IMG/VR virus record: IMGVR_UViG_2703718833_000007
Location: 6,191-70,190 of that record
Source of the DNA: a virus
Taxonomy: Duplodnaviria > Heunggongvirae > Uroviricota > Caudoviricetes
Direction: 5' to 3' (one strand)
Length of the DNA: 64,000 nucleotides
A model generated the notes under the pieces. The model saw only the letters and a program-made list of their open reading frames with translations. It ran no database searches and was not told the origin of the DNA. The position numbers and the translations under genes are program-made. How positions within the stretch are numbered: position 1 is the first letter of the stretch; the number at the start of each line of letters is the position of its first letter. Positions 603 through 56,817 of the stretch are shown here, in pieces.

Positions 603-1655
603 TCAAATAGCGCCTGCGCGTGTATCGCGTAGCGTTTTTGGTTTAAGCAGGAAATCAAGTGTCGCAGTGAAGCCATCGCCGAAGTAAAAGTCCGAAGCCT
701 TGATCTTGAACGCTTCAAAGTAGGCGATAAAGCCGTTAATGCTTTTGTCTTTCAGGTAGTCAGTGAACGCATAGATCTTACGTTCCAAATCCCGATCCAG
801 TTCAGCAGGTGGCAACAGGCCATCAAACGTGATGTTAAACTCATTAACCACATCGGCAGCGTTTACAGTAGATGACAGCTTGCGCCATTGTTCAGCGTCA
901 GCCAGATACCCATCGAATTTAGTTACCCGGCAAATGTTGATAGGCTTAGGTGTTCCGCCACGGCTACGCCATTGCGTTAAAGCCCACTCAATCACTAATG
1001 TGATCTCATCCTCCGTATACGCTTTGCGTGTTTTTGTTTCTGTCAGTAGTTCGATGAATGGCTTAGCATCACGACATTTGCATCCTGCCTTGTCGTTGTA
1101 GAATGCCAGGCAACGCAATGCAGCATCGCTTATCTGATAGTCACTATCCTGATTGACTTCTTTTCTTTTTATATTTTTCTTTTCTTCTTCTGTTTCTTTT
1201 TCTTCTTCTAATTCTATTTCTAATTCATGACCCTTTCCTGACCCGGTCATGACCATATCATGACCTTTTGTTGTTGGATTGATTAACTTCTCTAATTTTA
1301 ATTGCTCCTTAGCTGTGTTTATGGCTGCCCTGTATGCGCTTTTAGAAGTCATTGATTGGTCCAGCCTTTTCAATAACTTTAAACAAGTTATGTGGCCTTG
1401 AGAGCATTCGAATAAACCAATTTCGATAAAGTATTTCATCATTTCTTCTATGCGTTTTTCAGTCGATCCGACGTTTCGCGCGATGATTCTGGCGTCATGT
1501 CGTAGGTCAAATGTAAGGTTGTGCTGATCTACGTCATAAGTTATCAGTTCTAGGCAATACCAATAAAGCCCGTAGCCTTCCAGGCCATAATCTAATAAAA
1601 CGTTTTGAAGTTTTTCATCGCGGTTCGCATCGCTATCATGCTTAAACCACTTCAT
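603..1655 (-). CDS. Phage replication initiation / replisome organiser protein (DUF4373, Lin1244-like N-terminal domain)
   Basis: Track ORF 350 aa; N-terminus MKWFKHDSDANRDEKLQNVLLDYGLEGYGLYWYCLELI typical of this family; acidic/Lys-rich linker; adjacent to immunity region. Confidence 0.6.
   Translation of the reverse strand: MKWFKHDSDANRDEKLQNVLLDYGLEGYGLYWYCLELITYDVDQHNLTFDLRHDARIIARNVGSTEKRIEEMMKYFIEIGLFECSQGHITCLKLLKRLDQSMTSKSAYRAAINTAKEQLKLEKLINPTTKGHDMVMTGSGKGHELEIELEEEKETEEEKKNIKRKEVNQDSDYQISDAALRCLAFYNDKAGCKCRDAKPFIELLTETKTRKAYTEDEITLVIEWALTQWRSRGGTPKPINICRVTKFDGYLADAEQWRKLSSTVNAADVVNEFNITFDGLLPPAELDRDLERKIYAFTDYLKDKSINGFIAYFEAFKIKASDFYFGDGFTATLDFLLKPKTLRDTRAGAI
1150..1230. other. 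Candidate replication origin (AT-rich pyrimidine tract with TTCTAATTC direct repeats inside replication gene linker)
   Basis: ttcttttctttttatatttttcttttcttcttc...ttctaattctatttctaattc encodes the EEEKETEEEKK linker; analogous to lambda ori inside gene O. Confidence 0.3.
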
Positions 1656-34984: not shown

Positions 34985-35491
34985 CTATTTACCGTGATTT
35001 GGATGAAAACCGTATTTAATTTCGGATTCTTGCCTTGCCTTGATTGCATCATCTTTGCTTTTGAATACCCCTAAATGTTTTAATTTTCCGTTGATTCTGA
35101 TAACTGCGCACCATTTACGCAATCTTTCAAGCCAATAAACACCAGCACAGCCGGATTTATTATTATGGTTGCGACTTCTGTTGTGGTTATTGTCTTGGCA
35201 GGTAACTAGCCGCAAATTTTCTATATGGTTGTTTACCTTATTGTGATCGATATGATCTATTTCCATTCCTTCCGGGATTGGTCCGTTGTGCATTTCCCAT
35301 ATAATTCTATGCTCTTGGTATATCCTCCTGTTAAACCCTACATGTATATACCCACTTCGTTTATGAAGGCACCCGGCTCGCTTTCCCGCATATCTTGAAT
35401 TCCAGGTTTTGGAAACGCCATTTCTTGGCTTCCATAATATAGCGCCGTCACTGTATATAAAATAATCATTCCAGTTAATTACTTGTGACAT
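34985..35491 (-). CDS. HNH homing endonuclease (HNH_3 + AP2-like), paralogue 4 of 4, opposite strand
   Basis: Track ORF 168 aa; INWNDYFIY, GPIPEGMEIDHIDHN, SGCAGVYWLERLRKWCAVI motifs. Confidence 0.85.
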   Translation of the reverse strand: MSQVINWNDYFIYSDGAILWKPRNGVSKTWNSRYAGKRAGCLHKRSGYIHVGFNRRIYQEHRIIWEMHNGPIPEGMEIDHIDHNKVNNHIENLRLVTCQDNNHNRSRNHNNKSGCAGVYWLERLRKWCAVIRINGKLKHLGVFKSKDDAIKARQESEIKYGFHPNHGK

Positions 35492-39640: not shown

Positions 39641-42600
39641 ATGAGTAGCGGCGGCGGCAAAGCCAAAACACCAACATTATTAAACGATAACCTGTATCAT
39701 AAACAGTTTTATCGTGTTTTAGACATTCTCAGCGAGGGGCCGATATACGGTCCGGTAAACCAGAATGCGCCATTAAACAACGTAATGCTTAATGACACGC
39801 CTATCACTGACGCAAACGGAAACACATCAATCCCGGGGATTAGTATAGCCTGGCGCAACGGCACGGCTGACCAGTCGCCGATTAATGGTTTTAATGCTAT
39901 CGAATCAACCGTTATTGTTAACGCAAAGGTAACTCACGATACACCAATAATCAGGACTGTTTCAGATCCAAACGTTAACCGCGTAAGGCTGAATCTTGGC
40001 GTTGATTCTCTGGTTCAGTCAGATGATAAGGGCAATCAATATAATACATCCGTTATGTTGATGGTTGATGTTAAACCGTCATCATCTTCTACGTGGTCGC
40101 AAATTAAAATCATTACCATCGGACCAGGTAAACAGAGTGGTGAGTATCTTGAAGCTCATATCATAGATGCACCCAATGAAAAACCGTTTGATATTCGCGT
40201 GCGCCGCATAACAGCAGATAGCAACAGCGATCTATTGCAGAATGATACGCGATGGAGTAGCTACAGCGAAATCATAGACGATAATCTGTCTTACCCTCAC
40301 ACCGCTGTAGCTGGCGCCGTAATTGACCATGATCAGTATACTGATACGCCTACCCGTAACTATCACCTTCGCGGGCTGATTGTTGATGTGCCGGACAACT
40401 ATAACCCTGAAACGCGCACGTATTCCGGTTTATGGCTTGGTGGATTTAAAAAAGCGTACACCAATAACCCTGCGTGGCTTTTCCGGTATCTGGTTAAAAA
40501 TGAACGTTTCGGGCTTGCCCGTCACGCTGGTTACATTGACGTTGATGACGGCGCATTGTATACGCTTTCTCAATACTGTGACCAGTTGGTTAGCGACGGT
40601 TACGGCGGCTTTGAACCTCGCATGACGCTTAATGCTTACATCACGGAGCAAATGAGCGCACGCGACTTGCTGGATAATATTGCTGGCATGTTCCGTGGTA
40701 TCGCGTTATGGGATGGGCAACGCCTTACCGTGATGATTGATGCGCCACAGGATCCAATTGCCACCATCACAAACGCAAACGTCGTTGATGGTGTGTTTAC
40801 TCGCTCAAGTCTTCCGCTTGCAGAGTGTTACAACGCCGTGATCGTATCATGGACTGACCCGGAAAACGGCTGGGAGCAATCAAAAGAATACGTGGCAGAT
40901 GATGAATTGATCGCCCGCGATGGTTATAACGAAACCACGTTGGAGGCGTTCGGTTGCACGTCACGCGGTCAGGCGTACCGCGCTGGCAAATGGCTGATAG
41001 AAACAGCAAAACGCGAACCGTCAAAATTCACGTTTAAAATGGCCCGTGACGCAATTCACTTCACCCCCGGGGATATTATCGAGATACTCGACAATAACCG
41101 CGCTGGCGCACGTTTAGGCGGTCGTATCGTGTCAAACACTGGCAGGGTTATCACTGTCGATAAGGTTGATTCTGAATACATCGCCCCAGGTGACACCATT
41201 AGCCTGCTTGATAGTGATGGCAAGTTTAAAAAACACCAGATCACTGGGGTTAACGGAAACAAAATCACCCTTGCATCCGCCCCGTCATGGATTCGCAACG
41301 GGACTGTTTTCGCTGTATCAACCAACGCGGCAAAACCCGTATTGTGTCGAATCATCAGCGTAGCAGAAACAGAAAATAACAGCGTGTACACCATCGAGGC
41401 TGCGCAGCATGATCCGCACAAACAGGCCGTAGTTGATGAAGGCGCGATCTTCGAGGTAAACAACGACACCCTTAATCACTTCCGCGTGCCTAACATTGAA
41501 AACCTGAAGGTGTTAAATGTTGGTTCTGAGACAGTTCAATGCCGCGCGACATGGGAAACACAGACGACAACGCATCGCCTGACCTTTGAGATCCGCGTAT
41601 ATAACGCCGAAGGCCGCGTGGTGGAAACTTATGAAACCACGAATTACCGCTATGAATTTTATGGCCTCGACGCTGGCAGTTACACGCTTGGTATTCGCGG
41701 GCGTAATGACACTGGCATGAAGGGTGCGGAAAGTATTGTGGACCTGGTTATTGGTGTACCATTGGCCCCTGTCGGCGTTAATTGGGTTCCTGGTGTTTTC
41801 CAGGCAACAGTATACCCGATCAGCAAAACAACCATGACCACTGATACAGCATATGAGTTCTATTTCTCAGGTGAAAATCAGATCACAGACCCATCAAAAG
41901 TAACCACATTAGCGCAGTTCACCGGGCGTGGCTACCAATGGACTTTTGGCGGCATGAACACGGGCCATACCTATTACGTTTATGTCCGCACACGTAACGC
42001 TTTTGGTGTGTCAGATTTCGTTGAGGCATCAGGAAAACCAACTGAAAACTTCGATGAAATCAGCGACTACGTGACGAAGGATGTTATGGGGTCAGAACAG
42101 TTTAAGGACATGATTGGCGACATTAAAGATCTTGGCGACCGCACAGATGTTATTGAAAATGCTACAAATGAACTAAAAACAGCGACCGGCAACCTCAAAA
42201 CTGCAACTGATAATCTGACAAACATAACTGACGATTTAAGAACTGAAACCGACAACCTGACCAACATAACCGAAGATTTAAGAACTGACACTGACAACCT
42301 GATCACAGAAACAGGATCAATAAAAGCTGATACCGATACGCTAAAAAAAGAAACAGAAGATCTTTATAAAAAAGTTAAGGAAAACGCCGATGATATTGGT
42401 CAGCATGAGTCAAGAATTGACTCATTAGAAGTGTCCAGCGAAAAAGTTGGCAGCGAACTGGCGCAAGCAAAAGCAAGCCTGCAAAACGCGTCACTTGCTC
42501 TTATTAATAACTCACTTGCACAGACAAACACGCGCGTAACTCTTACCGCTCAGTACAATAAAGGCAGGGCAGAGACCAAAGCGCAAATTGACCGCATTGA

Positions 42601-44980
42601 CAACGTTATCGCTGAAGAGAAAAAAGCGACAGCGGAATCACTGGAAACCATCACGGCAGAAATGAACACGATGGATTCTAACCTTAAAGGTCAGATTTCT
42701 AACGTGCAGCGCGCAGTAGCTGACGAGGCCAGCGCCCGCGCTGAAGCTATTAACGGTGTAAATGCCTCAATAAGCAATCTTGATAAGAAAACTGACTCCA
42801 GCGTTAACCGCATTGATCAAGCGATCGCTGACGAGACGAGCGCACGGACTCAAGCCATCAGCGACGTAAATGCAAGTATCTCAACGCTAGACAAGAAAAC
42901 TGACGCCAGCGTTAAACGCTTGGATCAGGCAATTGCAGATGAAACCAGTGCAAGAACTGAAGCCATCAGCGGCGTGAATGCCTCAATTTCCACGCTTGAT
43001 GGCAAAGTTACAAGCAATATTAACCGCATTGATAAAGCGATTGCAGACGAAACGAAAGCACGCACCGACGCGATCAGTAGCGTGAATGCAAGTATTAGCA
43101 CACTTGAAAACAATACAGAATCAGAAGTAAGCAGACTGGATCAAGCGGTTGCAGATGAAACCAGTGCCCGCACCCAGGCCATTAGCGACGTTAACGCCTC
43201 AATAAGCAATCTTGAAAGCAAAACTGACGCGAGCGTTTCCCGTCTTGATAAAGCAATATCAGATGAAACGCAGGCAAGAAGCGACGCAGTAACAGAGGTT
43301 AAAGCTAATTTAACGACGCTTGAAAATAGCACAAACTCCAGTGTTAAGCGCCTTGATCAAGCCATCGCCGACGAATCAAGCGCCAGGGCGCAGGCAATAT
43401 CAGGCATCAGCGCTGAACTTGGTATAGTTGAAAAAGATGTTGACAAAAACAGCGACGAAATAAATCAGACTAAAGCAAGTCTGCAAAACGCCTCAATCGC
43501 ACTTATCAACAACTCTATCGCTCAGACCAACACGCGGGTTACTCTTACTGCCCAATATAAGAAAGGTCGCAGAGAAACCAACGCGCAAATTGACCGTATT
43601 GACAATGTTGTAGCAGAGGAGAAAAAAGCCACTGCAGAAGCCATTAGCTCTGTAAACGCATCGATAACCGAACTTGATAAGAAGACAGAAGCAAGCGTTA
43701 GCCGCCTTGATAGAGCGATTGCAGACGAAACGAGCGCCCGCAGCGAGGCCATCAGCGGTGTGAATGCCTCAATTTCCACGCTTGATGGCAAGGTGACAAG
43801 CAACGTAACCAGGATGGATAAGGCGATTGCAGACGAAACGAAGGCCCGTACTGACGCAATAAGTAGTCTTAACTCATCGCTTACCAGTACGATTAATTCT
43901 AAGGTATCAGAGGCGTCAACGGCACTTTCTACGCATGAAGCATCAAGCGCAGAAAAATTTAGCCAGATCTCTGCGTCTTTCGAATCTGTAAACTCAAGTA
44001 TTACAGAATGGTCGCAGGCAATGGCAACGGCTGACGAGGCATTATCAAGCAAAATTGATCAGTTGACAGTAACAGTTAACGGGAACAAAACGGCGATAGA
44101 GACGACATCGAAAGCGTTAACCGACTTCAAAGGTAATGTTGATGCGTCGTACTCTATCAAGCTGGCGACCGACAACAACGGAATGAAATACGCAACAGGT
44201 ATGTCGCTTGGCCTCACTGGTGACGGCACTAACTTTCAGTCGCAGTGTATTTTCCTTGTTGACCGTTTCGTGTTAATGACCGCAGCAAACGGCACATATA
44301 CAACGCCTTTCTATGTCACCAATGGCGCAATGTATGTAAGAGAAGCGTTTATTAAGGACGGCACTATCAACTCCGCCAAAATAGCTGATCTAATACAGTC
44401 AGTTAATTACAGCTGGGAAAACGGTACAGGATGGGCGATAAATAAAGACGGTAACGCAGTATTTAACCAGGTAACAGTAAGGGGTACGGTATACGCCACA
44501 AACGGTAAATTTACTGGTGAGATTCAGGCCACAAGCGGGACGTTTAAAGGGACTGTACAGGCTAACAAATTTGTCGGTGATATTGTGGCTATTCACACTT
44601 TCCCTGATTCCAGCACTGTCTATAACTCAAGCCAGCGTGTAGCGCGTTTCTGTTATCGCTATGTGGACTCAACATCCGAAGAGACTTATAAAAACGTTAT
44701 GTTCCAGGCAAGGTTATCAGGGGCTACCAACACATCACAGATCAATGCCTGGATAGCTGGTTCTCAGGTATTGGTTGGTAAGAAATACGGTAACGAAAAC
44801 TCAAACGGCATGTTCTGTTTCGGTATGGATGGTGTAACAAATCAGATTGTCGATGTTGTTATCGAGATCTACACTCCGTGGTCAACAGGTAACAACACTG
44901 GGATTACGTTAAGTTGTCCGACCATGTTTATAGGTCGCAGTAACGGCACATGGTCGAAATGGGAAGAATCACACGACTAA
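39641..44980 (+). CDS. Host-specificity / central tail fibre protein J (lambda gpJ-like) with long internal coiled-coil repeat region
   Basis: Track ORF 1779 aa; position after I; repeated ~38-aa units (ADETSARTQAISDVNASISTLDKKTD...). Confidence 0.9.
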   Translation: MSSGGGKAKTPTLLNDNLYHKQFYRVLDILSEGPIYGPVNQNAPLNNVMLNDTPITDANGNTSIPGISIAWRNGTADQSPINGFNAIESTVIVNAKVTHDTPIIRTVSDPNVNRVRLNLGVDSLVQSDDKGNQYNTSVMLMVDVKPSSSSTWSQIKIITIGPGKQSGEYLEAHIIDAPNEKPFDIRVRRITADSNSDLLQNDTRWSSYSEIIDDNLSYPHTAVAGAVIDHDQYTDTPTRNYHLRGLIVDVPDNYNPETRTYSGLWLGGFKKAYTNNPAWLFRYLVKNERFGLARHAGYIDVDDGALYTLSQYCDQLVSDGYGGFEPRMTLNAYITEQMSARDLLDNIAGMFRGIALWDGQRLTVMIDAPQDPIATITNANVVDGVFTRSSLPLAECYNAVIVSWTDPENGWEQSKEYVADDELIARDGYNETTLEAFGCTSRGQAYRAGKWLIETAKREPSKFTFKMARDAIHFTPGDIIEILDNNRAGARLGGRIVSNTGRVITVDKVDSEYIAPGDTISLLDSDGKFKKHQITGVNGNKITLASAPSWIRNGTVFAVSTNAAKPVLCRIISVAETENNSVYTIEAAQHDPHKQAVVDEGAIFEVNNDTLNHFRVPNIENLKVLNVGSETVQCRATWETQTTTHRLTFEIRVYNAEGRVVETYETTNYRYEFYGLDAGSYTLGIRGRNDTGMKGAESIVDLVIGVPLAPVGVNWVPGVFQATVYPISKTTMTTDTAYEFYFSGENQITDPSKVTTLAQFTGRGYQWTFGGMNTGHTYYVYVRTRNAFGVSDFVEASGKPTENFDEISDYVTKDVMGSEQFKDMIGDIKDLGDRTDVIENATNELKTATGNLKTATDNLTNITDDLRTETDNLTNITEDLRTDTDNLITETGSIKADTDTLKKETEDLYKKVKENADDIGQHESRIDSLEVSSEKVGSELAQAKASLQNASLALINNSLAQTNTRVTLTAQYNKGRAETKAQIDRIDNVIAEEKKATAESLETITAEMNTMDSNLKGQISNVQRAVADEASARAEAINGVNASISNLDKKTDSSVNRIDQAIADETSARTQAISDVNASISTLDKKTDASVKRLDQAIADETSARTEAISGVNASISTLDGKVTSNINRIDKAIADETKARTDAISSVNASISTLENNTESEVSRLDQAVADETSARTQAISDVNASISNLESKTDASVSRLDKAISDETQARSDAVTEVKANLTTLENSTNSSVKRLDQAIADESSARAQAISGISAELGIVEKDVDKNSDEINQTKASLQNASIALINNSIAQTNTRVTLTAQYKKGRRETNAQIDRIDNVVAEEKKATAEAISSVNASITELDKKTEASVSRLDRAIADETSARSEAISGVNASISTLDGKVTSNVTRMDKAIADETKARTDAISSLNSSLTSTINSKVSEASTALSTHEASSAEKFSQISASFESVNSSITEWSQAMATADEALSSKIDQLTVTVNGNKTAIETTSKALTDFKGNVDASYSIKLATDNNGMKYATGMSLGLTGDGTNFQSQCIFLVDRFVLMTAANGTYTTPFYVTNGAMYVREAFIKDGTINSAKIADLIQSVNYSWENGTGWAINKDGNAVFNQVTVRGTVYATNGKFTGEIQATSGTFKGTVQANKFVGDIVAIHTFPDSSTVYNSSQRVARFCYRYVDSTSEETYKNVMFQARLSGATNTSQINAWIAGSQVLVGKKYGNENSNGMFCFGMDGVTNQIVDVVIEIYTPWSTGNNTGITLSCPTMFIGRSNGTWSKWEESHD
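42100..43900 (+). repeat. In-frame tandem and segmentally duplicated coding repeats within gene J
   Basis: Repeated DQAIADETSAR...NASIS units and two copies of KASLQNAS(L/I)ALINNS(L/I)AQTNTRVTLTAQY block. Confidence 0.7.
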
Positions 44981-44985
44981 TACTA

Positions 44986-45008
44986 ACCCCGCTACGGCGG
45001 GGTTTATA
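44986..45008 (+). terminator. Rho-independent terminator after J
   Basis: ccccgc-tacg-gcgggg hairpin followed by tttata. Confidence 0.6.
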
Positions 45009-45088
45009 CATATAGTAAACACATATTCGTCTGCGTAATGATAAGGCGTTAAAATAGTATGGTTAATTAACATAATGGAGTCATTGCG

Positions 45089-47026
45089 ATGATTTACACA
45101 ACTGGAACAATTGCCATCAATGGCAACACCGTTACAGGTACGGGAACAGATTTTTCCGCGCCGCTTTCTCTCATCCGTGTAGGTTGCACGCTCATTGCCA
45201 TCGGCAATCCGGTGCAGATCTTTACCATTACGGAAATCAAAAACGGTACTGAACTGTCAGTTACGCCAGCGGCTAACCCTGCAATCCCTGCGGGAACAAA
45301 ATTTAGTATTCTGCTTTCTGATTCGATCTCAGTTGATGGGCTTGCCCAGGACGTAGCTGAAACGTTGCGCTACTATCAGAGTAAAGAAACAGAAGTAGCG
45401 GAAGCGCTTGAATGGAGTCAGAACCATATAGCAGACAAGATCGGGCTTGGTGCAGATCACCGCGACTGGCCTGATTGCAACGATCCTACTGGTTATATAG
45501 GTTTTTGCCGTGCTGTAGAAGCTGAATCACGTAACTTTCCGTCAATCGCATCTGGCGAAATTTACTTGGTTGGTTGGCTTGCGCGTGGTGACAATGCCGT
45601 TATTAACGGCTGTTTCGTTGGTACAATTAGCCTTTCACTGTACACATACAGATATAACCCAACAGATGGTACGAAAGTATGGACACGACACGCAAGAAAA
45701 GATGAGGTAAGCAGATTGGCCCAGGGTTCTGACGAATCAGCTTTATGGGCCGCAGGAGGGAAGCAAAAATTTGTTCTGTTGGATGGAGGTGATGGGAATA
45801 CTCTATCTTGGGGTGTTTGGGATGATGCTGTTAGTCAATGGAGTCCATTAGCAATAGCTCAGGGCGGTACTGGTGCGCTTGATGCTTTAACTGCTAGGAA
45901 CAATCTAGGGGTGGGTGTAGGTGACAGTCCTCAATTCAGGGATGTGAATCTATCACGCTCAACAGATGAATCATCTGGCTTGGTATCTGGTGGTATACAA
46001 AGTTCCATACTTCTGGGATCTGATGGTACTAAGCGTGCAGAAGGTTTATTTTATGTAGAACACCAACAAGATAAACCAACACAAGTAACGCTTTCTGTAA
46101 ATGGAGCTAACGAAGGTTATAAATATTTATGCTTTAATACAATGGGGCAGATTTTAGTAGATACAGCCATTTTCAGATCAAACGGCACTAATCCACTTAT
46201 TATTAAAAGCAACACACCAACAATCTTATTCGTTGAAGAGGATCGCCCAAACGGATCACCTTATTACAGCTTAAATTTTGATGATGGTAACTGGCGCATT
46301 CAGAAAAGTGGCAATGGGTATAATGGTGAATATGTAATAAACTACGACTATCAAAAAAATGAAATAGAGGTTCCAAAACTCAAAGCATCAAGAATGAGTA
46401 TTCTTGGGACAGGCAGTAGTTTAGAAATAAATAGCGCTGGAACAGCAGATGAAACGACGTCTATTCAATCATGGGGTAATAGATCTGATCGCTTGTCTGT
46501 TTTTGAGGTAAGTTTAGATACAGGCTATTTATTTTACGCGCAGAAAAATGCTGATAAAAGCATGGTTTTATCAGTCAACGGGAAGATAGAATGCGTGTCA
46601 TTATCCCAATCATCTGACAGGGATCTGAAGGATAACATCAAGATTATCAGTGACGCCACTGAAGCCATCCGTAAAATGAACGGGTACACCTACACGCTTA
46701 AAGAAAACGGCCTGCCTTACGCTGGCGTTATCGCTCAGGAGGTCATGGAGGCAATACCGGAAGCAATAGGGTCGTTCACAAAGTACGGTGAAGAACTGGC
46801 AGGCCCGACACAAAGCGGTCATGAACTGCGAGAAGAAACCCGTTTCCTTAGCGTTGACTACGCAGCAGTCACTGGTTTACTTGTCCAGGTGGCACGCGAA
46901 ACAGATAACCGCGTCACCGAACTTGAAGAGGAAAACGCCAGCCTGCGAGATAACATTGCCGCAATGGATGAGCGTATCGCAAAACTTGAAGCGCTTGTCA
47001 GCAAGTTGACTGGAAGCGAAAAATAA
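45089..47026 (+). CDS. Tail fibre/spike protein with C-terminal S74-type intramolecular chaperone domain
   Basis: Track ORF 645 aa; C-terminal SDRDLKDNI...NGYTYTLKENGLPYAGVIAQEV and terminal coiled coil. Confidence 0.75.
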   Translation: MIYTTGTIAINGNTVTGTGTDFSAPLSLIRVGCTLIAIGNPVQIFTITEIKNGTELSVTPAANPAIPAGTKFSILLSDSISVDGLAQDVAETLRYYQSKETEVAEALEWSQNHIADKIGLGADHRDWPDCNDPTGYIGFCRAVEAESRNFPSIASGEIYLVGWLARGDNAVINGCFVGTISLSLYTYRYNPTDGTKVWTRHARKDEVSRLAQGSDESALWAAGGKQKFVLLDGGDGNTLSWGVWDDAVSQWSPLAIAQGGTGALDALTARNNLGVGVGDSPQFRDVNLSRSTDESSGLVSGGIQSSILLGSDGTKRAEGLFYVEHQQDKPTQVTLSVNGANEGYKYLCFNTMGQILVDTAIFRSNGTNPLIIKSNTPTILFVEEDRPNGSPYYSLNFDDGNWRIQKSGNGYNGEYVINYDYQKNEIEVPKLKASRMSILGTGSSLEINSAGTADETTSIQSWGNRSDRLSVFEVSLDTGYLFYAQKNADKSMVLSVNGKIECVSLSQSSDRDLKDNIKIISDATEAIRKMNGYTYTLKENGLPYAGVIAQEVMEAIPEAIGSFTKYGEELAGPTQSGHELREETRFLSVDYAAVTGLLVQVARETDNRVTELEEENASLRDNIAAMDERIAKLEALVSKLTGSEK

Positions 47027-47459: not shown

Positions 47460-48464
<1,005 letters not shown>

Positions 48465-51430: not shown

Positions 51431-52666
51431 CTACGATAACCGCGCATTCAACATGGCTATCTGTTCGTCGTTCATGTCATCAATCCACATACCGTAAATT
51501 TCATACACCATCTGCGCAGTTTCATGCCCCATTTGGCTGGCTATAAATGCCGGGTTCGCTCCTGCCGTCAACAGCCAGCAGGCAAAAGTATGCCGCGTAT
51601 GGTACGGATTACGGCGGCGAATACCAGCACGTTTTACTGCTGCATTCCACCTTGCCCCCAAACTGCTTACCGAGTAATAAGGTTTTTGTTTTCCGTTACA
51701 CACCCTGGGCATGAAAACAAAATGCAGTTTTTGCTTTTCGGTTCTGCCGTACTCCCGATGATAAAAGGTGATTTCGCTTTTGCGATGATGCCCGGTCAGT
51801 TTGTATTGCTCCTTCAGTGCTTCAAGAGCAGGCTGCAGTAGTGTTACTGTTCGGATCCCGGCATTTGTTTTTGGGGGACCGAACATATCAAGTATCGTCA
51901 GGTTTCTTCTGACATTCACTATTCCCTTTTCGAGATCCACATCCTCCCACGCCAGAGCTGCCAGTTCCCCGTGACGAAGTCCTGAGTAAACGGCAAATTT
52001 CCACAAGTTCTGGCTCTGTCCTTTTTCACTTTCCATTAATGCATTGAATTCTGTTTTAGATAACGGATCAGGCTTTATTCTGTTTCGCTGTAATTTTTTT
52101 ACTCCTTCAAATGGTTTGGTTGATATAAATCCCGACTGATACGCAAAACGCAACAGCGAACAGAGCAGGGCGATATAGTTATCAACTGTGCGCACGGTTC
52201 TTCCTTTTTTGTTGGATCTTGGATTATCCAGGTAAAGCGTTTCTCCATGCAGCAGTTCATTCCGGTAGTTTAAGATATCGCTATAACGAATATGTGATAT
52301 CGGGGTACTTTCACAAATTATTATTCTGAGTGTTTTTAATTGTGATTTTGTTTTCTTCATTGTGTATGTTGTTAACTCTGTCTCTTTAATTTTTGTCCAG
52401 ATATCACAAAGCTCTCCGAACGTTTTTATGACTCTCGTTGTCACCATTTTTGCCCCAGTGCTGGACTGGGGAAAACGTCTTAAATACTCAAATTCACCGG
52501 AGTTTATTTCATGAACTATCAGCGCTCTTAAATTTCCGGCCTTTTTAATATTACTGTTTGTAATCTCCCAGCCTTTTAATGTTTCCCGACATCGTTTTCC
52601 TCGAAACATGAACCAGATGCGAATGTATCTACCTCTAATCTCGACACCTGTTGGTAATTTAGACAT
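51431..52666 (-). CDS. intR: Rac prophage integrase (tyrosine recombinase)
   Basis: Track ORF 411 aa; C-terminal catalytic R...HxxR...Y region (NPYHTRHTFA). Confidence 0.9.
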   Translation of the reverse strand: MSKLPTGVEIRGRYIRIWFMFRGKRCRETLKGWEITNSNIKKAGNLRALIVHEINSGEFEYLRRFPQSSTGAKMVTTRVIKTFGELCDIWTKIKETELTTYTMKKTKSQLKTLRIIICESTPISHIRYSDILNYRNELLHGETLYLDNPRSNKKGRTVRTVDNYIALLCSLLRFAYQSGFISTKPFEGVKKLQRNRIKPDPLSKTEFNALMESEKGQSQNLWKFAVYSGLRHGELAALAWEDVDLEKGIVNVRRNLTILDMFGPPKTNAGIRTVTLLQPALEALKEQYKLTGHHRKSEITFYHREYGRTEKQKLHFVFMPRVCNGKQKPYYSVSSLGARWNAAVKRAGIRRRNPYHTRHTFACWLLTAGANPAFIASQMGHETAQMVYEIYGMWIDDMNDEQIAMLNARLS

Positions 52667-52667
52667 A

Positions 52668-52883
52668 TCATGAGTCTTTGATAAACTGATTTATCTTTGG
52701 ATAGTTGTACCAGATAATCCCTCGTTTGCTGTCTGGCTTACCTAAAGGAGATACTCGTTTGAAGTGGAAGCCCTCCACCCAACAGTTCTGGCGGTATGCT
52801 TCAATTTGTCTGGCCCCCAGACCAGTGCGAAGCATCAGGCCGTATTCAACCATCCACTCTTCATTAAAGATTACTTGTGCCAT
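52668..52883 (-). CDS. xisR: Rac prophage excisionase
   Basis: Track ORF 52668-52907 trimmed to [15 protein letters not shown]. Confidence 0.8.
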
Positions 52884-52961
52884 CGCATCACCTCTGGCAG
52901 GCGCCAATGTTAGACTGAAATTGACGCCCGATGTTGATTATTAATAATAAGCTATGAAGTT

Positions 52962-53171
52962 TTAATTTGAATACAATGCAATTCTCGAGGACTGAAGTTT
53001 CTCGCAATTAAAATTTATCAGTTTTACTTTCTGCTCTCTGGAAACGCCTGCTTCTTTTTTACCTGAGAGCATTTTTTCGCATTCTGATTTCGTTAGTTTA
53101 GATTTTGAATATCTTGTCCAGTTAGTAGGAGTGCCACCTTCCTTTTCAATAGTGGCGGTAATTTTATACAT
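52962..53171 (-). CDS. rcbA: Rac prophage protein RcbA (YdaC)
   Basis: Track ORF 52962-53243 trimmed to MYKITATIEKEGG. Confidence 0.75.
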   Translation of the reverse strand: MYKITATIEKEGGTPTNWTRYSKSKLTKSECEKMLSGKKEAGVSREQKVKLINFNCEKLQSSRIALYSN

Positions 53172-53358
53172 GAACACCTCCATTATTATTTCCAGTGGTT
53201 CGTTTATTCCATCTTTCGAGTGCTTCTTTTTCACCTCCACCATAACCGGTTCGGGATTCGCATCCGTTACACTTCGCTCGGTAATATCCTGAAATGGCTT
53301 TCACCGTTACTGATGGACAACCACAAAATGGACATGGTTTAACATTGTCATATCTCAT
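53164..53358 (-). CDS. ralR: Restriction-alleviation protein / type I TA toxin RalR (Lar)
   Basis: Track ORF 53164-53397 trimmed to MRYDNVKPCPFCGC; matches remembered Lar. Confidence 0.8.
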   Translation of the reverse strand: MRYDNVKPCPFCGCPSVTVKAISGYYRAKCNGCESRTGYGGGEKEALERWNKRTTGNNNGGVHV

Positions 53359-53414
53359 AATTTTTCTCATAAAAAATATTTCAAGTTGGCGGTGCATTAC
53401 ACCGCCAGGCTGAA

Positions 53415-54224
53415 TTATTCCTCTGAATTATCGATTACACTGTATTCCCCGGTTAATACAGAGGAATCTGCAGGATCGATTGTCAGTGGTTCCTTTTCAT
53501 CCATTGATACTGCACGCTGGATCTCAATTGATACGGGCAGATATTTGAACAGGCGACGAATAGCCGTTTTCTTTGCCATTTCTTCCCAGTGAGTTACCCA
53601 CGGCCCGTTATTACCAGCTTTACTCAGGCTGCGCACCAGCTCAATCTGTTTGCGCGTCATAACTTCAAACTGAGTACCTCCGTCTTTCAGTCTTGCGACA
53701 GCATAGACGTGGGTAACCGGGGCATCTTCGTTTTCTCCCGGGCGGTGTATTAACTTTTCATCAAGGCCAAATTCGAAGCTAAACTCGTCACCTTCACGGA
53801 CAACACGGGCTGACAGGCTGGCGATTTGACCAGAACGGCGAGCCAGATCAATCATGCCGCGATAGCCAATGATTAGCTGAACGTTCTTTTTACCGCTCTT
53901 TTCGTTTTTATTACCAAAAGGCAGTAAATATGCATGACCGAGGGCGCTACCTGGCTCAAGTCCGAGCTGTGAACACTGTACGATCGCACTGACAAAACTC
54001 ATAGTGTCACAGTTTCCTAACGCCGGAACTTTACGAATTTCTGTGGTGGCGATACGGATCATACGTTCAGCCGTCATATGGCGTGGAAGAGCTGCTGCCA
54101 GTTGCTCTTTCATTGATGGCTGGTTAATAAAACTAATCACGTCGCTATTTTTAACTGCTGCTGGTGCACGGTTTCCCTGAGTTTTTTGCAGATCGGTTTT
54201 TGCGATTGGTGGTTGCTTAGTCAT
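53415..54224 (-). CDS. recT: RecT single-strand annealing protein
   Basis: Track ORF 53415-54281 trimmed to [14 protein letters not shown] (269 aa). Confidence 0.95.
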
Positions 54225-56817
54225 TTGCATATTCCTTAGCCCAGCGGGGCAGTGATAATGTCTTAATAGCTGGCCATTCATCGGTATTCAGGCAGTCAGA
54301 CAGGGTTCGCAGATTGCGGTGATATTCCTGTTGACCTGCCAGTTTTGCTTCTTCGCCCATCATGAAAATTTCAACCGGATAACGTCCGCATTCAATAGTT
54401 GTGCTGGCAACCAGAAAAACGAAAGTTGGCTGCACTCCAAACTGTGCTTCATAACCGTCACTGTAGAATGCATCCTGAACGTGATAGCGGTAGTCGTAAT
54501 AAGCGGTTTTGAATCGTTGAATATCCGCCGTAGTTTTCACGTCCATGATCCAGTGAAATTCAGGGATAATTTTGTCCGGACGGCACCGACACAAAATTCC
54601 TGTTTCAGGATCTTCCCAGTAAATTGATGATTCAGCGTGTCCGGCGCTTTCAACAAGCCATTGCCCCAGCGGCAAAGCCATAACGCTTTGATACATGAGT
54701 TCAATTTTCCGGCCTTCTTCCGCAGTGATAACCGTTTTTCCTGTGCTTGCGCATTCCATCAGAAACGCTTTCTCTTCTTCTTTTCCGGCGTTTGTACGGC
54801 GGTTAAATTCAGGTGCTACGATAAAGCGGTTACTGAATTCCTCCGGTTCAAGTACCCGGCAGTGGAAAGCGGTTCCTAAATCGAGCGTTTTTGTCTTTGT
54901 GGTGTCCACGGGGGCATTTTTACGCCACAAATATAGTGCCGGAGTATCAGCAATGTCATCGAGCTGAGACTTACTGACACCGGGACCCGCGTGGTAATTC
55001 TCATTCGAAATTCCGTAATAAATACCTGGCTCTATGTCTTCTACGATTACGGGATCTGCGACTTCGCCAGTTTCATCACTGCAATCGCGATGCGGATCGC
55101 TGCCAGCATTCTCATTGTGCGGATGTTCAGCGCCTTCCATTTCCTCCGGATCATTTTCCTTAGCTTCAACCTGACTCTCTTCATCGAATGTTTCCTGGTA
55201 TGTTGCGTCGCCCATCACCGCACCACAGTCAGGGCAGTTATCCCCGCCAGTCTGGCCGCAGGCATTGCAGGCTATTTCCGGTTCCTGTTGCACTACTGGC
55301 TCAGGTTGATTCATATCCGGGCTGGTTTTTTCCGTTTCTGGCTGGTTCTGGTACACACAATCGCGAGTCTGGATCCCCTTTACCCATTTCGGATCGTTCG
55401 GGTCGCTAATTCCGTCAACAAATTCACCACGTGATGCAGCAAGCAATTTATCGGCATCGACAGGATTTTTTGATGGAATGTTTTTCCGGGCTTCATGGAG
55501 TTCTGCCCGCAGTTCCTGATATTTCGCATCAACAGAATTTACCTGTGACTGAGCATCCAGCGGCTGCGTGTCCTGATGATGTTCAGTTGCGTCCGGTTCC
55601 ATTGTTTCAGCCTCTCCCTGTTCAACTGCCGTTGTTCCAGATGGTTGCGGTTTTTCTTCATCATCCTGTTTTCCTTCTTCTGTTACTCGCTGCGGCATCG
55701 GGGCAGAGGAGCGACCGCAGGCAATATCCACGATTTCCGGATCAGGGTTGGCATGATCGGTTTCAGTCAGTACTTTGTTCAGATATTCAGTGACGTGCGC
55801 GGGGATGACCTCGATCCCAATTGGTGCTTCTTTTACGGACGCAACCACGATGGCGCGGGAATAATCCAGCCCGCCAGGCATGGTGATGAATTTGTCGCGG
55901 AAAACAGAAAAGGGCGGTTTATTTTCAGCGATAATTTCCTCAATGCGTTTAGCGTGTGCCGGATGAAGGTTATAGATGTCCAGATCCATTGAACGGGCCA
56001 GTACGCCAGTGGCTACGTCGCGCGCCAGTGACGTCAGATCGTGTACGAAACCTTCGCCGCGATCGGTGAGGTTTCCGCCGCCAGCATTAGCACCGGAAGC
56101 CGTGCGAGTGATGTGTGAAACACGATTACCCTTCATCCACTCTTTTGTCAGCAGTCCTCGATCGGTGTAGTCAGCGTTCAGGTATGCTTCGAAAAAAGCA
56201 GTTATCAGTCCCAGGTTTGAATTACCAGGATTAGGGAAAACTTTGTCAGTGTCACGAACCAGTTTGTGGAGTTCGCGAATTTCCAGCGGGTCGAGCAGGC
56301 TGGTTTTGTGGGAAACAGCCAGGGCAGTAACAGCCGGTAGTTCTTCAGCCCGAGCAATGTGTAATGCCTGGAGTCCGTCGCGTGAAACGTGCGTTACCGG
56401 TTTTTCGCTGCCGTGTTGAGCAAGCCAACGAATGGGCAGTTCCTGGCCAGAAATTGGGAGTAGCATATTCTCCTCAATCTCAGTCATGTCTTCGCCGTTG
56501 ACGTTGGTATTGCCTTGATAGTGAGCGTTGTCTGGTGCTGCTCCCGGTTTTAGTTCCCATGTCATGGAGTCTTTGCTGAGTTGATAGCGTTCACTCCAGG
56601 TAAAATCGATCTCACCTTCAGCGGGCAGGTCATTAACGACAGGAAAATTCGTGGCAACAGCTTTAAAATAGCTGCTCAGTTTTTTACCTGACTTAACGAT
56701 CAGGTAGTCCAGAGTGGCACAGGTCGATTCAAAATCGTTGCTTGCCCACAGGACGACGTCAGGTTCACCGGATGATTTTTTCGCTTTCCGTAACAGGAAG
56801 AGTGGTTTTGTGCTCAT
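54217..56817 (-). CDS. recE: Exodeoxyribonuclease VIII (RecE), full length
   Basis: Track ORF 866 aa; overlaps recT start as in K-12. Confidence 0.95.

Follow-up and report, generated by a model that had tools for sequence, protein, structure and literature searches.

The gene at 45089..47026 on the plus strand of the window (the whole 64,000-nucleotide stretch of phage DNA analysed here) raises the question of what its product is and how it reaches its final form. An earlier note had read it as a tail fibre carrying a self-cleaving chaperone of the S74 type at its C-terminus. Our analysis confirmed that reading, which is correct and also ordinary, the product being a side tail fibre of a common and well-understood kind. 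Its identity as the side tail fibre of an mEpimmI-group siphovirus prophage and the self-cleaving chaperone mechanism, taken together, have in our estimate a probability of about 0.87.

The open reading frame is real and intact; it starts at the first ATG that follows a stop codon, ends with TAA and encodes 645 amino acids, with a precursor mass of 69.8 kDa. The gene and its immediate surroundings comprise the following features:

45089..47026 (+), side tail fibre gene, 645 codons plus stop, assigned by PHROG tail-fibre families and by homology to mEp010 gene 118
45077..45080 (+), GGAG ribosome-binding site, 9-12 nt 5' of the fibre ATG, read from the sequence
44987..45007 (+), probable intrinsic terminator, a GC-rich hairpin (CCCCGC-TACG-GCGGGG) followed by TTTAT, just 3' of the J stop codon
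47056..47079 (+), intrinsic terminator after the fibre gene, at the right prophage end, with a 10-bp stem (6 GC pairs) followed by TTTTTGT

The hairpin at 44987..45007 probably separates J from the fibre gene as an intrinsic terminator; it was absent from a simple terminator scan because its T-run is short. In mEp010 an annotated terminator, T18, occupies the equivalent position, and T19 lies in the same place as the terminator that follows the fibre gene. Within the gap between J and the fibre gene, matches resembling a sigma-70 promoter were no commoner than in shuffled sequence. Moreover, no tail-fibre-assembly (tfa-like) ORF of at least 50 aa was found on the plus strand between 47027 and zntB at 47481, which is consistent with a chaperone built into the fibre itself.

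In a PHROG search the protein matched tail-fibre families, phrog_6578 with an E value of 1e-116. At NCBI an identical protein is named 'tail fiber domain-containing protein [Escherichia coli]' with PF13884 precomputed, and the exact sequence occurs on one contig only. There are thousands of relatives in E. coli prophages; among the candidates scored, 2873 matched at E <= 1e-5, and many of these carry the name S74 family peptidase. A Megablast search of complete E. coli genomes returned no near-identical full-length copy, and only the ends of the module matched, because of mosaicism.

An mEpimmI-group (mEp021-like) prophage of E. coli ends with the fibre gene, which lies after J and before zntB. 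On its 5' side lie the genes for the tape measure, L, K (NlpC/P60 and JAB), I and a J protein of 1779 residues, and the structural module of 25 kb is about 91% identical to mEp044, mEp554, mEp021 and mEp010. On the 3' side of the fibre terminator, which is a strong one, the E. coli core genes ynaN, zntB and dbpA follow at 99.2% identity, zntB adjoining the prophage at the ydaM-side integration site that has been described for the mEpimmI group (PMC11893012). Throughout its length the fibre shares 79% identity with the product of mEp010 gene 118, a 'tail fiber protein' gene in the same position (last, after J and a terminator) that shares the anchor, the shaft modules and the S74 domain, but differs at residues about 425-500, the putative tip, and has a Cys codon (TGT) where our fibre has the catalytic Ser509 (TCT).

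The S74 domain itself was sought with the HMM search that the earlier note had proposed as a check, and the outcome that would have refuted the note, a lack of any hit, did not arise. Pfam Peptidase_S74 (PF13884) matched residues 509-559 with an E value of 3.1e-14 and 53.4 bits, well above the gathering cutoff of 22 bits and far from anything that chance would give, and the match spans model positions 1-56 of 58. The domain was said to occupy the last ~130 residues, and 137 were found (509-645 of 645, the extreme C-terminus); the announced signature SDRDLK...GVIAQEV was located as well, with SDRDLK at residues 509-514 (nt 46613-46630) and GVIAQEV at 546-552. The features of this part of the gene are:

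46613..47023 (+), S74 intramolecular chaperone / auto-processing domain, residues 509-645, with S509 and K514
46610..46615 (+), predicted scissile bond Ser508/Ser509, S509 being position 1 of the PF13884 model, by analogy with MyRF and T5 pb1
46886..47014 (+), C-terminal coiled coil, residues about 600-642, with heptad a/d positions at 609-640 within a predicted helix 575-642

The terminal coiled coil, likewise announced, was borne out by heptad spacing at residues 609-640, where the hydrophobic 3-4 pattern is strict and unbroken (V L N L I M I L V L), and by AlphaFold, which places a helix over 575-642 in a monomer model from which the oligomeric state is not readable. A single-sequence search of PDB with the C-terminal 151 residues also matched this region weakly to coiled coils, both designed and natural. 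That query returned mostly coiled coils, and a profile of the diverse family was required to reach solved chaperones. Residues 495-645 were also compared with 1.84 billion 50%-cluster representatives, giving 4786 clusters at E <= 0.001, and in essentially all the representatives listed the match is C-terminal, in proteins ranging from ~100 to >5000 residues. Searched against PDB, a profile (A2) built from 45 diverse members of the chaperone domain then reached several solved structures: the long tail fibre gp37 of S16 at E 1e-19 (6f45), the ICA domain of MyRF at 4e-14 (7dc3), chain d of 8hqz, which is an L-shaped tail fibre, at 6e-7, a further phage fibre at 1e-4 (8jov) and the neck appendage chaperone gp12 of GA-1 at 5e-4 (3gud).

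Membership in the chaperone family rests on sequence and profile rather than on a modelled fold, because the monomer AlphaFold model of the full protein, from a shallow alignment, has pLDDT <50 at residues 511-600. A monomer model represents an intertwined trimer poorly, and the Foldseek search of the full-length monomer against PDB was set aside as mostly beta-propeller noise, T4 gp34 being the sole meaningful match. Some relatives carry the NCBI label 'Pyocin knob domain-containing S74 family peptidase'; this was not transferred to our fibre, since NCBIfam was uninformative, a scan with E up to 0.1 giving no pyocin-knob match and just an insignificant coiled-coil match.

Work on MyRF and T5 pb1 has shown that the catalytic dyad consists of the first Ser of the domain and the Lys five residues on (S587/K592 in MyRF, S1264/K1269 in T5 pb1 and, as cited in those papers, S911/K916 in endoNF), that the scissile bond lies N-terminal to the catalytic Ser (P586/S587 in MyRF, T1263/S1264 in T5 pb1), and that a triple coiled coil at the C-terminus drives trimerisation. 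In T5 pb1 the uncleaved chaperone hides the receptor-binding tip (PMC4690869). Our fibre has the Ser-x4-Lys dyad as S509/K514, with canonical spacing at the start of the domain. The motif [S/C]DxxxK is kept in 60/60 close relatives (Cys in four of them) and stands at the domain start in 106/106 full-coverage 50%-cluster representatives. Given this conservation, we infer autoproteolysis of the fibre from its catalytic residues, and the predicted cut is at S508/S509; it would yield a mature fibre of 54.7 kDa ending ...SLSQS at Ser508 and a chaperone of 15.1 kDa.

In T5 pb1 (R1250) and, in the account given by the same papers, in endoNF (R897), the oxyanion hole is formed by an Arg of the neighbouring chain that lies 14 residues ahead of the Ser. 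The equivalent position here is S495, and positions 495-508 contain no basic residue that is conserved in the fibre and its close relatives. MyRF, which likewise has no required basic residue, still cleaves, so that the oxyanion Arg is a non-universal feature.

A Cys in place of the catalytic Ser was observed in the plaque-forming mEp010 and in about 6/267 fetched relatives. We give somewhat less than even odds to the reading that the S74 chaperone family naturally tolerates Cys for Ser and, if such alleles still self-process, can work with a thiol nucleophile.

Upstream of the chaperone the fibre is a mosaic, in which an anchor of Drexlerviridae/Webervirus type is followed by two BF23-like shaft modules and a T4 gp34-like distal part:

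45089..45421 (+), N-terminal virion-anchor domain, residues 1-111, with matches to Klebsiella depolymerases and T1-like fibres
45422..45913 (+), shaft module 1, residues 112-275, ending in a QGGTGA...ARNNLG junction motif
45914..46612 (+), distal shaft and tip modules, residues 276-508, the putative receptor-binding end of the mature fibre
46349..46528 (+), hypervariable patch, residues 421-480, from column entropy across 60 relatives

Residues 3-111 match the N-termini of Klebsiella siphovirus depolymerases (7vyv/7vz3/7lzj, E about 1e-24), a region that has been named the conserved N-terminal anchor domain (PMC10581125). Its identity to T1-like/Drexlerviridae fibres, Tls stf among them, is 45-55%, and across the prophage relatives the anchor is conserved at about 90%. 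Our fibre allele is without an Ala/Ser-rich helical segment of ~84 residues that is found after the anchor in most relatives.

The likeness to a T5-type L-shaped fibre, also put forward in the earlier note, holds over residues 118-438 and 352-620, which align with the BF23 L-shaped fibre (Ltf). By BLASTP, residues 118-273 are 45% identical to BF23 residues 173-327, residues 280-438 are 42% identical to 432-593, and residues 352-620 are 27% identical to 975-1252, which comprises the distal part and the chaperone of BF23; the portion 352-508 by itself is 27% identical to 975-1128, just before that chaperone. In the AlphaFold model, residues 121-270 are beta-rich with pLDDT 80-90. The structure prediction suggested earlier for residues ~300-510 was run on 276-508 as a separate model (mean pLDDT 80.8), and Foldseek against PDB found the T4 gp34 C-terminal region with a probability of 0.97-1.0, as well as Bdellovibrio fibres; against BFVD it returned tail fibres only, including L-shaped fibres, gp37 proteins and S74-domain proteins. 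A comparison of residues 110-280 with 280-508 for internal duplication gave only a weak similarity over 54 residues.

Three other readings of the gene product were weighed against this body of evidence. The anchor match to 7vyv/7lzj might be taken to mean an enzymatic tailspike, that is, a capsule or O-antigen depolymerase instead of a fibre; however, that similarity is confined to the first 111 residues, no beta-helix, lyase or hydrolase Pfam match was obtained, and the remainder matches modules of L-shaped and T4 gp34-type fibres, so the depolymerase reading was rejected and we regard it as scarcely tenable. The C-terminal domain could instead fold the fibre and stay attached, being uncleaved or catalytically dead, as the lack of the endoNF/T5 Arg at -14 and the want of a confidently modelled chaperone fold might suggest. 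Against this, S509 and K514 are intact at canonical spacing, MyRF cleaves without such an Arg, and the dyad-bearing T5 pb1, MyRF and (according to those papers) endoNF all self-cleave; a domain that stays on is thus very improbable. Equally improbable, in our view, is a decaying prophage in which the gene survives as a silent relic and yields no functional fibre. The exact sequence is known from a single contig, truncated alleles exist at the same locus in other strains, and the left prophage end lies outside the window; but the ORF is full length from anchor through chaperone, with its ribosome-binding site and terminator, all catalytic and nearly invariant positions are kept, and the tail genes upstream of it are likewise intact, sharing about 91% identity with those of plaque-forming phages.

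Across the 60 relatives conservation is about 90% at both ends of the protein, and it is the centre that varies, with a column entropy of 1.9 bits at residues 421-440, a peak of 2.58 at 441-460 and 1.6 at 461-480; our fibre departs from mEp010 gp118 within this region too. Conserved ends with a variable centre are typical of receptor-binding proteins. The earlier note had placed a receptor-binding domain just upstream of the chaperone. The most variable stretch, 421-480, does lie directly before the chaperone, but its fold is a T4 gp34-like module with no recognisable lectin or knob, and by Foldseek the distal domain resembles shaft modules more than a defined receptor-binding head. A receptor-binding tip right before the chaperone is, from the pattern of variation, plausible.

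For the mEpimmI phages, dependence on LamB or OmpA tracks clusters of the J C-terminus and was assigned to J, side fibre and S74 not being discussed (PMC11893012). Because of this assignment and of the analogy with T5 pb1, we infer that the fibre is most likely an accessory adhesin which speeds adsorption, while J carries the essential porin specificity. Could the fibre, and not J, be the primary host-range and receptor determinant, essential rather than accessory? The LamB-using phages mEp010, 013, 044 and 554 all match the S74 region of the fibre gene (nt about 1518-1938) at the DNA level, and the OmpA-using mEp021 and mEp515 match only the first 325 nt of the gene; fibre type therefore co-varies with receptor group, and the distal patch is hypervariable. 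However, the J C-terminal clusters track the receptor groups too, and J has a lambda-type tip domain (PF09327); the closest characterised fibre, T5 pb1, is a dispensable accelerator that binds O-antigen (PMC4690869), and a related E. coli strain has a truncated fibre gene at the same locus. A primary role for the fibre is accordingly unlikely.

A maturation pathway can be proposed. The coiled coil of the S74 domain (509-645) would align three chains in register, and the domain would then act as a template on which the beta-structured, intertwined distal shaft folds. When the trimer has reached its correct fold, Lys514 would activate Ser509 to cut the S508/S509 bond, releasing the 15 kDa chaperone and exposing the fibre tip. 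The mature fibre of 508 residues would be held at the tail tip by its anchor (1-111), with the variable distal end (about 421-508) presumably facing the cell surface.

Beyond the correct annotation of the fibre gene these results have little significance. What annotation gains is that this prophage side fibre needs no separate assembly chaperone, and a predicted mature size of 54.7 kDa with Ser508 as the last residue. Residues about 421-508 are the place to seek host-range differences among mEpimmI phages, and compact self-chaperoned fibres are practical parts for phage host-range engineering. Should the Cys alleles indeed self-process, the compact combination of anchor, Ltf modules and chaperone would offer a minimal scaffold for testing a thiol nucleophile, and the same scaffold would be useful for swapping fibre tips between siphovirus families.

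Among known systems, lambda Stf/Tfa is analogous in role and position, as an accessory side fibre 3' of J in a temperate siphovirus, although no search detected sequence similarity to lambda Stf; lambda needs Tfa as a separate assembly protein, but our fibre carries its own chaperone and no such ORF follows. The anchor of ~110 residues is shared with Klebsiella Webervirus Depo32 (7vyv), DpK2 (7lzj) and Tls stf, but in Depo32 and DpK2 it is followed by a helical bundle and a beta-helix enzyme, while in our fibre it joins the shaft directly. The K1F endosialidase (endoNF, MEROPS S74) belongs to the same Pfam family, PF13884, and has the S-x4-K dyad and a C-terminal trimeric helix bundle; its passenger is a sialidase tailspike, not a thin fibre, and the R897 equivalent is absent here. 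Neither the single-sequence nor the profile search of PDB gave a direct match to endoNF chains. The best match to a chaperone of solved structure is gp37 of the Salmonella phage S16 (6f45; E 1e-19 by profile, 8e-4 by single sequence), extending from SSDRxxK through the coiled coil; S16, however, is a myovirus that needs a separate gp38 adhesin, and the upstream parts of its fibre are unrelated to ours.

With the T5-type L-shaped fibres (T5 pb1, BF23 Ltf) the differences are several: these are longer (1265-1396 aa, with BF23 Ltf at 1265, vs 645), our N-terminus has no significant similarity to BF23 Ltf and is of the Drexlerviridae/Webervirus type instead, the equivalent of T5 Arg1250 is absent, and the bullet-shaped polymannose-binding domain of T5 pb1 was not detected in the PDB sequence or Foldseek searches. 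Nevertheless, the C-terminal chaperone, the Ser/Lys dyad and the coiled coil are common to both, and in the T5-type fibres, as here, the chaperone comes without a separate gene.

In the tail fibre gene of mEp010 (gene 118, L001:9001-10965) the position of the S74 catalytic serine is occupied by a cysteine, the codon being TGT as against TCT in the window; mEp010, the bearer of this fibre, is a plaque-forming phage. Cysteine replaces the catalytic serine in about 6 of the 267 fetched relatives, two of them distant cluster representatives, and the relatives listed for this residue are P0002, P0008, P0039, P0054, P0074, P0174 and P0213. The change looks like a recurrent natural swap of the nucleophile rather than a single error.

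A related fibre gene in E. coli PRO_A-1370-6W-A_ESBL is reduced to a 3' remnant (L003:8545-9000), annotated as a pseudogene with its N-terminus missing, at the same chromosomal site as the window fibre, adjoining ynaN and zntB. Since this strain has just the 3' remnant at the site, resident prophages do at times lose or rearrange their fibre gene.

The window also carries the following features:

603-1655, minus strand, leftmost large ORF, protein with a Lin1244/Lin1753-like N-terminal domain
34985-35491, minus strand, HNH endonuclease ORF (PF13392, E 4e-20)
39641-44980, plus strand, J-like tail tip protein, 1779 aa
42199-42302, 42-nt repeats in the coiled-coil region of the J-like gene
42741-42996, 108-nt tandem repeats in the same region
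45410-45425, fibre junction after residue about 109
51431-56817, minus strand, second, Rac-like prophage, starting directly past ttcA
51431..52666, minus strand, its tyrosine integrase with Arm DNA-binding domain
53415..54281, minus strand, its RecT
54217..56817, minus strand, its RecE/exonuclease VIII homologue

The leftmost large ORF does not encode an integrase, therefore the window begins within the mEpimmI prophage, whose left end and attL lie outside it. The HNH endonuclease ORF runs on the opposite strand and fills part of the gap that separates the tape measure gene from the tail genes L/K/I/J.

In the J-like protein some 650 residues of coiled coil, composed of degenerate 36-aa units, separate the Ig domains (residues 609-811) from the C-terminal tip domain (1485-1623); the antisense ORFs within this stretch seem to arise merely from its repetitive sequence. 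The J protein of mEp010 is of comparable length, 1707 aa (annotated CDS 5124 nt).

Most fibre relatives have some 84 additional residues behind the anchor domain, at about 110-192 in their own numbering, forming a helical segment rich in Ala, Ser and Thr. The window protein has a short neck without it, as do a smaller number of the relatives (e.g. mEp010 gp118, P0003, P0004 and P0006). This segment is comparable to the helical bundle found behind the anchor of the Klebsiella phage depolymerase Depo32.
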